From sequence record MH791400.1: a DNA stretch of 64,000 bases; one strand, 5' to 3'. The stretch comes from Escherichia phage EcSzw-2. Positions 7,402 to 7,853 of this stretch are shown in pieces (position 1 is the first letter of the stretch; each line of letters begins with the position of its first letter). The translations under genes were made by a program, and so were the position numbers. Under the pieces are notes generated by a model. The model saw only the letters and a program-made list of their open reading frames with translations, was not told where the DNA came from and did no database searches.

Positions 7402-7460
7402 ATACTAAATAACTTTGTTTTGCAGGTCAAGCAAATTTTTAAAAATATTTTCAGGAATTG
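7402..7460 (-). promoter_or_regulatory. early promoter + leader, type B (TTGACC-N17-TAGTAT)
   Basis: Minus strand: ttgacc tgcaaaacaaagttatt tagtat ttgcatcagacgggcaaacaag... Confidence 0.55.
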
Positions 7461-7550
7461 CCAGAGATGAACGGGCGCACGACTACCACAAAACATAGCA
7501 CAAATCAAGAATTATTTTTCAGTTCTCTACAGATTTTTCTCTTGACTTTT

Positions 7551-7590
7551 GGGGAGAGGGGGAGTAAGAGGGGGAGAGGGGCAGGGCTGG
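7551..7590 (+). other. G-rich tract with at least 4 runs of G4-5 (potential G-quadruplex) in otherwise AT-rich DNA
   Basis: ggggagagggggagtaagagggggagaggggcagggctgg. Confidence 0.5.
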
Positions 7591-7599
7591 CACTATCTA

Positions 7600-7785
7600 C
7601 CTACCTGCACAATTCTAAAATGATTTTTCTTGCCCGACACTCGCCGGGTCTGCACGTTTTGAAAATGAAAAATCTCTTTGGAGTCCACCTGCACAAATTG
7701 AAAATGAATTTTCCCTTTGGAGTTCAAAATTTTCTCTACAGATTTCTGTCCAGACTTTTACCTGCACAATTTTAAAATGAAAAAG
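7600..7785. repeat. four iterons CCTGCAC-N6-9-AAAATGA (~7604, ~7650, ~7688, ~7761), flanked by a 14-bp direct repeat TTCTCTACAGATTT (~7524 and ~7732)
   Basis: cctgcacaattctaaaatga / ctgcacgttttgaaaatgaa / cctgcacaaattgaaaatga / cctgcacaattttaaaatga; also ctttggagt x2. Confidence 0.6.
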
Positions 7786-7853
7786 CCCTCCTTACCTGAA
7801 AATTTTACCAGATAAGAAAGGCTTAGTCTATTGTGAATATGCTACAGAGTTTC

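Follow-up and report, generated by a model that had tools for sequence, protein, structure and literature searches.

The non-coding spacer at positions 7354–7853 in the DNA of Escherichia phage EcSzw-2 (sequence record MH791400.1) contains four direct copies of a unit of about 38 bp, and 3–5 copies are found in relatives. As judged from the sequence, this repeat array is best explained as a set of DNA binding sites for one sequence-specific protein. The single most likely function, proposed here tentatively, is that the units represent the iterons of a phage replication origin or of an origin-like loading site. The whole stretch of DNA analyzed is 64,000 nt and is termed the window. All genes surrounding the spacer are on the minus strand, and the spacer is therefore to be read on the minus (gene-sense) strand.

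Repeat units

The minus-strand pattern TCATTTT-N6-GTGCA has exactly four perfect matches in the window, all of them in the spacer and within 175 bp (Table 1). The core of the unit, TCATTT-N7-GTGCA, is bipartite and asymmetric with a fixed spacing, and all copies have the same orientation. A weight matrix built from the units of relatives gives 35–41 bits for the four units; the next best site in the window has 11.2 bits and the maximum from shuffled sequences is 11.6 bits. In the complete 87.6-kb genome of the relative H12, four orthologous units score 36–39 bits and all else is at or below 13.1 bits. Three or more direct repeats of binding-site size that are unique in the genome, as expected of an iteron origin, are thus present. 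An earlier note on this DNA had described four iterons of the form CCTGCAC-N6-9-AAAATGA. The four copies are real, non-random and conserved, but the gap is exactly 6 nt and one copy has TCTGCAC in place of CCTGCAC.

Among 74 distinct units, which come from four genera and from a divergent fifth clade, TCATTT, GTGCA and the 7-nt spacing never vary. Bases between the two core blocks are A/T-rich, those upstream of the blocks are purine-rich, and the flanks are variable. The four units of this phage are only 64–85% alike, and orthologous units each retain their own distinguishing bases. Core-to-core distances are 39, 45 and 73 bp here, 41/45 bp in Mooglevirus and 37/37/39 bp in Erwinia phages. 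The 73-bp gap between units 1 and 2 corresponds to two unit periods, and in the Erwinia phages this gap holds one full extra unit (74 = 37 + 37). A 14-bp repeat, TTCTCTACAGATTT, is present at 7523–7536 and 7732–7745, a distance of 209 bp; with 86% identity it can be extended to 28 nt. This direct repeat had been thought to flank the iterons; the repeat stands, but it brackets three of the four units and not all.

The spacer is found in approximately 291 phage records, all from Ounavirinae except two that are filed under other host names. The array directly follows the macro-domain gene in every genus examined and also in the divergent clade of 85–88 kb (L023 and L167). A scan of viral contigs for two adjacent units yields 31 loci, and all but two are on contigs of at least 50 kb. 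Of the two on smaller contigs, one (L024) bears a unit array of the Felix type; the other (L015) is on a 10-kb podovirus-like contig with two 50-bp repeats that match the pattern and is judged to be unrelated. Identities to Felix O1 are 88.5% for terminator and units, 91% for the cassette, 83% for the middle segment and 77% for the promoter part, so that terminator and units are better conserved than the adjoining macro gene (73%).

The core is asymmetric and invariant, the copies have one orientation and occur once per genome, there is no conserved RNA structure, and the array is probably poorly transcribed. These properties together argue for protein sites at the DNA level. Poor transcription of the sense strand is expected because the array comes after a terminator of -25.8 kcal/mol and lies 170–370 bp before the next promoter. 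Under the origin-like reading, the units would act as DNA, bind a protein and have a role in replication. A single protein could read the TCATTT-N7-GTGCA core across two successive major grooves. Once the protein is bound to the units, A/T-rich DNA would be opened, possibly with the aid of a structure-prone cassette (G-quadruplex or triplex here, hairpin-forming in other relatives) and of transcription that starts at the adjacent promoter. The structure-prone cassette, an A/T-rich tract and a promoter all adjoin the array.

Several observations weigh against an origin. The spacing of the units is irregular, not helically phased and different between clades, which is unusual for iterons, and no 10–11-bp periodicity is present above background. 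There is no initiator gene near the spacer; the polymerase and primase-helicase genes are 25–30 kb away. The A/T-rich tract is only about 25 bp (7431–7456) and would double as a promoter upstream element. The spacer is located inside a long co-directional gene block and not at a divergence point, and there is no inflection of GC skew at the spacer. The missing switch in skew is weak evidence, since skew tracks the direction of transcription in this genome. The literature searched gave no binding protein, replication or transcript data for these phages, and in searchable papers there is no description of the region beyond its terminator. A replication origin and a regulatory switch are both compatible with the data, and sequence alone cannot separate them; an origin-like role is placed first and a regulatory boundary second. 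The weights given to these and the other explanations are based on judgement and were not calculated.

Host factors were also considered as ligands of the units. When inspected by eye for sites of DnaA, IHF, Fis, CRP, Fur, sigma-E and sigma-54 and for the marbox, none suits all units, and the marbox geometry is 1 bp off. Compared with the DnaA box TT(A/T)TNCACA, the units of this phage (ACCTGCACA) agree at 6 of 9 positions, as do those of E. coli and Salmonella phages, and units of the Erwinia phages (CTATGCACA) at 8 of 9. In Erwinia phage phiEa21-4 (L006, positions 800–1050), the units have the sequence TGTGCATAG/A, whose opposite strand agrees with the DnaA box TTATGCACA at 8 of 9 positions. 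A general phage promoter motif does not account for the units: neither the window nor the complete H12 genome contains additional copies, and hexamer readings are inconsistent between units. An origin from degenerate early-gene promoter/stem-loop cassettes is not supported by any resemblance, and intrinsic curvature is discounted in that the A-tracts are not phased.

Table 1. Features of the spacer and its edges, with window coordinates
Feature	Position	Strand	Evidence and remarks
Intrinsic terminator hairpin of the macro-domain operon	7783–7824	-	Terminator scan; 17 pairs, several G-U
Repeat unit 1, core TCATTTTAAAATTGTGCA at 7763–7780	7758–7786	-	Perfect pattern match; 41.3 bits
Degenerate CTGTAGAG-type short repeat in the gap between units 1 and 2	7732–7759	-	Second copy of the 14-bp repeat; repeat family D3
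Repeat unit 2, core at 7690–7707	7685–7713	-	Pattern match; 39.4 bits
Repeat unit 3, core at 7651–7668	7646–7674	-	Pattern match; 35.4 bits
Repeat unit 4, core at 7606–7623	7601–7629	-	Pattern match; 36.3 bits
Exchangeable cassette	7551–7595		Pyrimidine tract on gene-sense strand; G-quadruplex/mirror-repeat motif on + strand
Conserved middle segment, about 95 nt	7457–7550		First copy of the 14-bp repeat; alignments
A/T-rich UP-element-like tract GAAAATATTTTTAAAAATTTGC	7452–7431	-	Sequence and published consensus
Predicted early sigma-70 promoter, TTGACC-17-TAGTAT	7430–7402	-	Promoter scan; kept in all genera
Leader of first early gene, family-wide ribosome-binding site CCTAAACTGGAGATTCAAA	7354–7401	-	ATG at 7353–7351

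Terminator, early promoter and middle segment

The terminator scan gives a 17-pair hairpin followed by a U-run, with the tail TTTCATTTTA. On the gene-sense strand the fold has a delta G of -25.8 kcal/mol (z = -7.35); the same stretch on the + strand has only -11.4 kcal/mol (z = -2.67). Relatives show compensatory CG/GC and UA/AU/GC exchanges and many G-U pairs in the hairpin. This is a strong, strand-specific intrinsic terminator, and its structure is maintained by compensatory change. It is the same as terminator t13 of Felix O1 (PMC3185647). The U-rich tail, TTTTTCATTTT at 7773–7782, overlaps repeat unit 1. The best match to a repeat unit outside the spacer is at 12060–12130 in the window, on the minus strand, where a terminator hairpin is followed by TTTTTTATTTGTGTTTTGTGCAGAGTAG and then by an extended -10 sequence, TGTATAAT. 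This site scores 11 bits and its orthologue in H12 scores 13 bits, a likeness that hints at a derivation of the repeat units from a terminator tail.

At the other edge of the spacer, -35 and -10 hexamers at 17-bp spacing and the adjoining A/T-rich tract form a predicted sigma-70 promoter, in which the tract may represent an UP element. The leader sequence CCTAAACTGGAGATTCAAAATG is common to every small early gene. In the minus-strand intergenic regions of window 4426–7146, most small early genes are preceded by a sigma-70 promoter within a stem loop (GGGGTT...AAGCCCC). These cassettes resemble the promoter-early stem-loop (PeSL) cassettes of T4-type phages, and all carry CCTAAACTGGAGATTCAAAATG. 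There is thus nothing unusual about the outer 75 nt and 100 nt of the spacer, which consist of a terminator and of an early promoter plus leader, respectively. The earlier note had recognized neither these elements nor the minus-strand reading. Its placement of the spacer between two transcription units agrees with the finding of the macro-domain operon terminator on one side and the early promoter on the other.

The conserved middle segment has a short inverted repeat, TCAAGA/TCTTGA. It also has the sequence TTGACT on the + strand (7542–7547), with a weak TAAGAG at 7565–7570; these could be the -35 and -10 of a candidate antisense promoter. Relatives with a hairpin cassette have the same TTGACT, followed after 17 nt by TGgTAGCCT.

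G-tract and exchangeable cassette

A 40-nt G-tract, GGGGAGAGGGGGAGTAAGAGGGGGAGAGGGGCAGGGCTGG, is located at 7551–7590 and fits the pattern of four G3+ runs with N1-7 loops. It has four runs of at least three G, in keeping with the G-quadruplex capacity described in the earlier note, and is one of only two G-quadruplex-type loci in the window; the other is at 85–118. The fold has a delta G of -28.1 kcal/mol with the quadruplex energy term versus -8.5 kcal/mol without it. On the + strand the tract is also a homopurine mirror repeat, with 29 of 31 positions matching in a 14-TAA-14 arrangement.

A comparison of relatives shows that this segment is an exchangeable cassette between the fixed flanks GTGCAGGTAG... 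and ...AAAAGTCAA. The pyrimidine/purine tract is present in 16 of 27 relatives. In the other 11 it is replaced by an unrelated hairpin-forming cassette, which is 53 nt in ten and 43 nt in one; 53 nt is also the length of the pyrimidine-tract cassette of Felixounavirus. The Erwinia phages have only a 20-nt C-rich stretch with three G-runs. Because the hairpin cassette can substitute for it and the Erwinia tract is reduced, the G-quadruplex motif is not an essential feature of the region, contrary to the weight it had been given. It is the most eye-catching feature of the spacer and the least essential one.

Setting and genome position

The neighbor upstream, in the sense of transcription, is a gene at 7854–8636 for a 260-aa macro-domain "phosphatase" (Pfam Macro, phrog_335). 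The downstream neighbor is a 68-aa gene. It starts at the ATG at 7353, which has a GGAG ribosome-binding site, rather than at TTG 7401, and this gives an intergenic region of 7354–7853 (500 bp); of the limits given previously, 7402–7853, the right edge is kept and the left edge is moved. No Pfam DNA-binding domain is found in the neighboring proteins.

The spacer is a conserved boundary between two genome blocks of the Ounavirinae, the DNA-metabolism unit and the terminal small early genes. The arrangement was determined in two relatives whose records have PhageTerm-derived ends. In both, a rightward block of about 30 kb begins with the primase-helicase gene, continues with genes for nucleotide metabolism and rIIA/B, and ends with the macro gene at the spacer. 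Beyond the spacer there are 13–15 small genes that each have a promoter cassette of their own; a non-coding stretch of about 0.5 kb separates them from the terminal repeat. From the start of the spacer to the right end of the record is 6.9 kb in each. In Pr103Blw, whose record includes both terminal repeats, the spacer is at 7.9% of the genome from the right end. The distance to the terminal-repeat homologue in the window is about 4 kb. GC content steps up across the spacer from about 35% to about 40%.

The spacer is not itself a terminal repeat or packaging site, as the annotated terminal repeat of Pr103Blw has no similarity to 7300–7900. That repeat maps to window positions ~3307–3688 and 1–234, about 3.6 kb from the spacer. 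Felix-like phages have terminal repeats of 581–613 bp (PMC4837284, PMC8303462, PMC6454146). Window segments 1–234 and ~2800–3900 comprise about 1.7 kb of non-coding DNA that is homologous to the Felix-type terminal repeat and its flanks; they are dense in the short repeats CTTGTTAAGA, CTATAAAG and CTTAAAAG, and the second G-quadruplex-type motif is within this region. In the divergent clade, L023 (reverse strand, ~5330–5760) and L167 have 4–5 units of the GTGCATAGG type, one of them GTGGATAGG, which are flanked on one side by the macro gene and on the other by an array of TTAACA repeats that resemble those at the start of the Felix terminal repeat. The first and last 1232 bp of Erwinia phage BoyaciRG1 (OR125561, L040/L041) are identical and span the spacer and parts of both neighboring genes; this is probably an assembly overlap and not a true terminal repeat.

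Across the 1.6 kb tested, the window sequence agrees fully (100% identity) with that of Escherichia phage EcSzw_1 (Ounavirinae, Suspvirus). The matching EcSzw_1 GenBank record is flagged UNVERIFIED, and window coordinates are 567 ahead of it, so the window begins before base 1 of the record. N bases are present in the window at 298–300, 665, 1866, 2773, 3093, 3691, 4506, 5537 and 6977 and give rise to X residues in two early open reading frames (ORFs).

Coding capacity and RNA structure

The 105-aa plus-strand ORF reported earlier exists (7458–7775) and is annotated in GenBank as a hypothetical protein, and some records annotate minus-strand ORFs of 44–50 aa. A single weak PHROG match (E = 1.7e-5 over 20 residues) is the other point in favor of a small protein. 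Against this, the unit spacings of 39/45, 41/45 and 37/37/39 shift the frame between genera, and there are 2- and 4-nt indels within Felixounavirus. The annotated ORFs differ between records, even in strand, and none is annotated in the RefSeq entry of Felix O1. There is no Pfam match and no ribosome-binding site; for the 105-aa frame, the earlier note had seen no convincing one. Examples of inconsistent annotation (L001, L002, L004, L007, L181) are EcSzw1_16 on the + strand, wV8 gp13 on the minus strand, Mordin gp014 and three small coding sequences in H12. The spacer thus remains non-coding, as first described; that it encodes a protein is highly improbable, and the ORFs annotated in GenBank relatives are probably false gene calls.

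A structured non-coding RNA, one of the roles suggested earlier, is not borne out. Consensus folding of 21 relatives on both strands supports no structure except the terminator, whose hairpin alone is conserved and covaries. A search of Rfam 15 gives no match to the spacer beyond chance level (E > 2), and the spacer has no tRNA or tmRNA.

A copy of host DNA is also rejected, as there is no match in 5,426 E. coli genomes, 72,556 plasmids or the enterobacteria (one genome per species). The scans of host sequences gave 44 matches, in unrelated bacteria. Mimicry of ToxI or pseudo-ToxI fails as well, since alignments are no better than those of shuffled sequences (p = 0.24–0.88); the ToxI query was verified in 75 plasmids. 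The 36-nt ToxI repeat of Pectobacterium plasmid pECA1039 is present at an identity of at least 99% on 52 small plasmids, most of them mobilizable and mainly from E. coli and Salmonella. ToxIN is thus a realistic defense met by these phages, because ToxI is common on plasmids of these hosts.

Alternative explanations of the array

The nearest competitor of an origin, although clearly less probable, is a regulatory boundary. In this case the units would be operator-like sites for a phage or host transcription factor, and would insulate or switch the early block or its first promoter. The spacer is located exactly between two temporal or functional blocks, with a terminator and a strong promoter at its edges and the step in GC content across it. 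A transcriptional-regulator gene is annotated elsewhere in relatives, and independent operators tolerate variable spacing more easily than an origin complex would. However, the units are 170–370 bp upstream of the promoter and not over it, and the motif is at no other promoter in the genome. One array is not obviously able to control the block, because the downstream early genes each have a promoter cassette that is free of units. A smaller chance is given to the view that only the terminator and promoter matter, and that the repeats are relics of a duplicated terminator tail kept alike by recombination among co-infecting relatives and not by selection. The overlap of unit 1 with the terminator tail is consistent with this, as are the sequence TTTTTCATTT, a usual terminator tail in Felix O1, and the fact that the best unit match outside the spacer is another terminator tail. 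The swapping of cassettes shows that recombination is active here. Relics would hardly be expected to have core blocks that stay unchanged in four genera and a fifth clade although overall divergence reaches about 50%, or to keep the distinguishing bases of each unit at orthologous positions, and the array is more conserved than the adjacent gene.

Genome position suggests another explanation, of about the same low probability as relic repeats: an entry or boundary signal like that of T5, in which a host-takeover block that lies next to the genome end and enters first would have its inner limit at the repeats, and these would halt or pace DNA transfer or anchor the DNA. Conserved non-coding repeats are found at the inner edge of the early block and a few percent from the genome end (see the distances above), as in T5. 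Between the spacer and the genome end, the genes are small and variable and are transcribed in the direction of that end, and their ORFs are less well conserved than the repeats; the T5 region shows the same features (Davison, 10.1101/866236). Units of the divergent clade abut the TTAACA array that is similar to the start of a Felix-type terminal repeat, and Erwinia-phage units (TGTGCATAG/A) come close to the DnaA box, at 8 of 9 positions. On the other hand, two-step DNA transfer is not known for these phages, and the region is outside the short terminal repeat (581–613 bp). Units of E. coli and Salmonella phages have only 6 of 9 DnaA box positions, and palindromes or inverted repeats of the T5 kind are few. 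By analogy, the array and the exchangeable cassette might represent a new kind of cis landmark of the Ounavirinae that binds a dedicated protein at the inner border of the first-entering block, which is again an unlikely prospect. With the same reservation, such a landmark could be an analogue of the T5 injection stop, unrelated in sequence and outside the terminal repeat. In that case, delivery or activation of the DNA of Felix-O1-like phages would be a two-stage process.

Still less probable is a function as non-coding RNA, in which an antisense transcript from the candidate TTGACT promoter, or read-through of the terminator, would make the array an unstructured RNA decoy or sponge. Variants of this explanation, covered by the same low estimate, are an antitoxin mimic of the ToxI/pseudo-ToxI type and a pyrimidine-rich anti-Shine-Dalgarno or Rho-loading tract. 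The period of 37–45 nt and the 3–5 copies are similar to type III antitoxin arrays (PMC3475682; PMC12283969), and fall within the ToxI-like range of 2–6 tandem repeats of about 34–45 nt. An invariant A-rich AAAUGA is present in every unit on the + strand. TTGACT is conserved, with TGgTAGCCT 17 nt further on in the relatives with a hairpin cassette, and E. coli and Salmonella often carry ToxIN plasmids whose ToxI is identical. Yet the similarity to ToxI is not significant, no related sequence is found in the E. coli, plasmid and enterobacterial sequences listed above, and the units are too little alike (64–85%). Neither a conserved structure nor an Rfam match supports an RNA. The order promoter, array, terminator on one strand that characterizes ToxI loci is absent: the sense-strand terminator precedes the array, there is no + strand terminator after it, and the -10 of the candidate antisense promoter is poor in this phage.

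Significance

At its center the spacer has a cis element that is specific to the family and is enclosed by a normal terminator on one side and a normal promoter on the other. Felix O1 and its relatives are among the classical typing phages and have found wide use in biocontrol and therapy. No other non-coding DNA in their genomes, apart from that at the genome ends, is as well conserved as the spacer, and the repeat is unique in the genome. For these two reasons it is the most obvious handle for finding an origin or a master regulatory site. The analysis also flags ORFs that several GenBank records annotate, probably wrongly, in the spacer, and identifies a region that phage engineers should leave intact. 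The natural variants with a G-tract or a hairpin cassette provide ready comparisons.

Comparison with known systems

The origin-like function favored here can be compared with iteron-type origins such as lambda ori, P1 oriR, SPP1 oriL/oriR and those of iteron plasmids. The spacer has in common with them several same-orientation repeats of about 20 bp at one non-coding locus, beside an A/T-rich tract and a promoter. It differs in its irregular and unphased spacing and in having no adjacent initiator gene and, in this phage, no consensus DnaA boxes. The + strand tract agrees with the formal definitions of both G-quadruplex and H-DNA (homopurine mirror-repeat) motifs, but is evolutionarily dispensable, as about 40% of relatives have a hairpin cassette in its place.

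ToxI and phage pseudo-ToxI arrays (PMC3475682) also consist of a few tandem units of about 36–45 nt at an intergenic locus of a virulent enterobacterial myovirus. The spacer units have no sequence similarity to them, are not near-identical, are not in a one-strand promoter-array-terminator order and have no supported pseudoknot and no covariation in nested structures. PeSL-like cassettes of T4-type phages are likewise repeated regulatory DNA in a variable early region, and such cassettes are carried by the adjoining early genes. The four units, in contrast, share no sequence with these cassettes, have no promoter and are present at a single locus.

The injection-stop (iss) region of T5 is located inside a 10-kb terminal repeat, contains many palindromes along with paired DnaA boxes, and is associated with a transfer of DNA in two steps that has been demonstrated; in these features the two regions would differ. 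In position, the T5 region described by Davison (10.1101/866236) nevertheless appears to be the closest analogue of the spacer. Both consist of conserved non-coding repeats at the inner edge of a set of variable small early genes, a few percent from the genome end, and both are better conserved than the adjacent ORFs.

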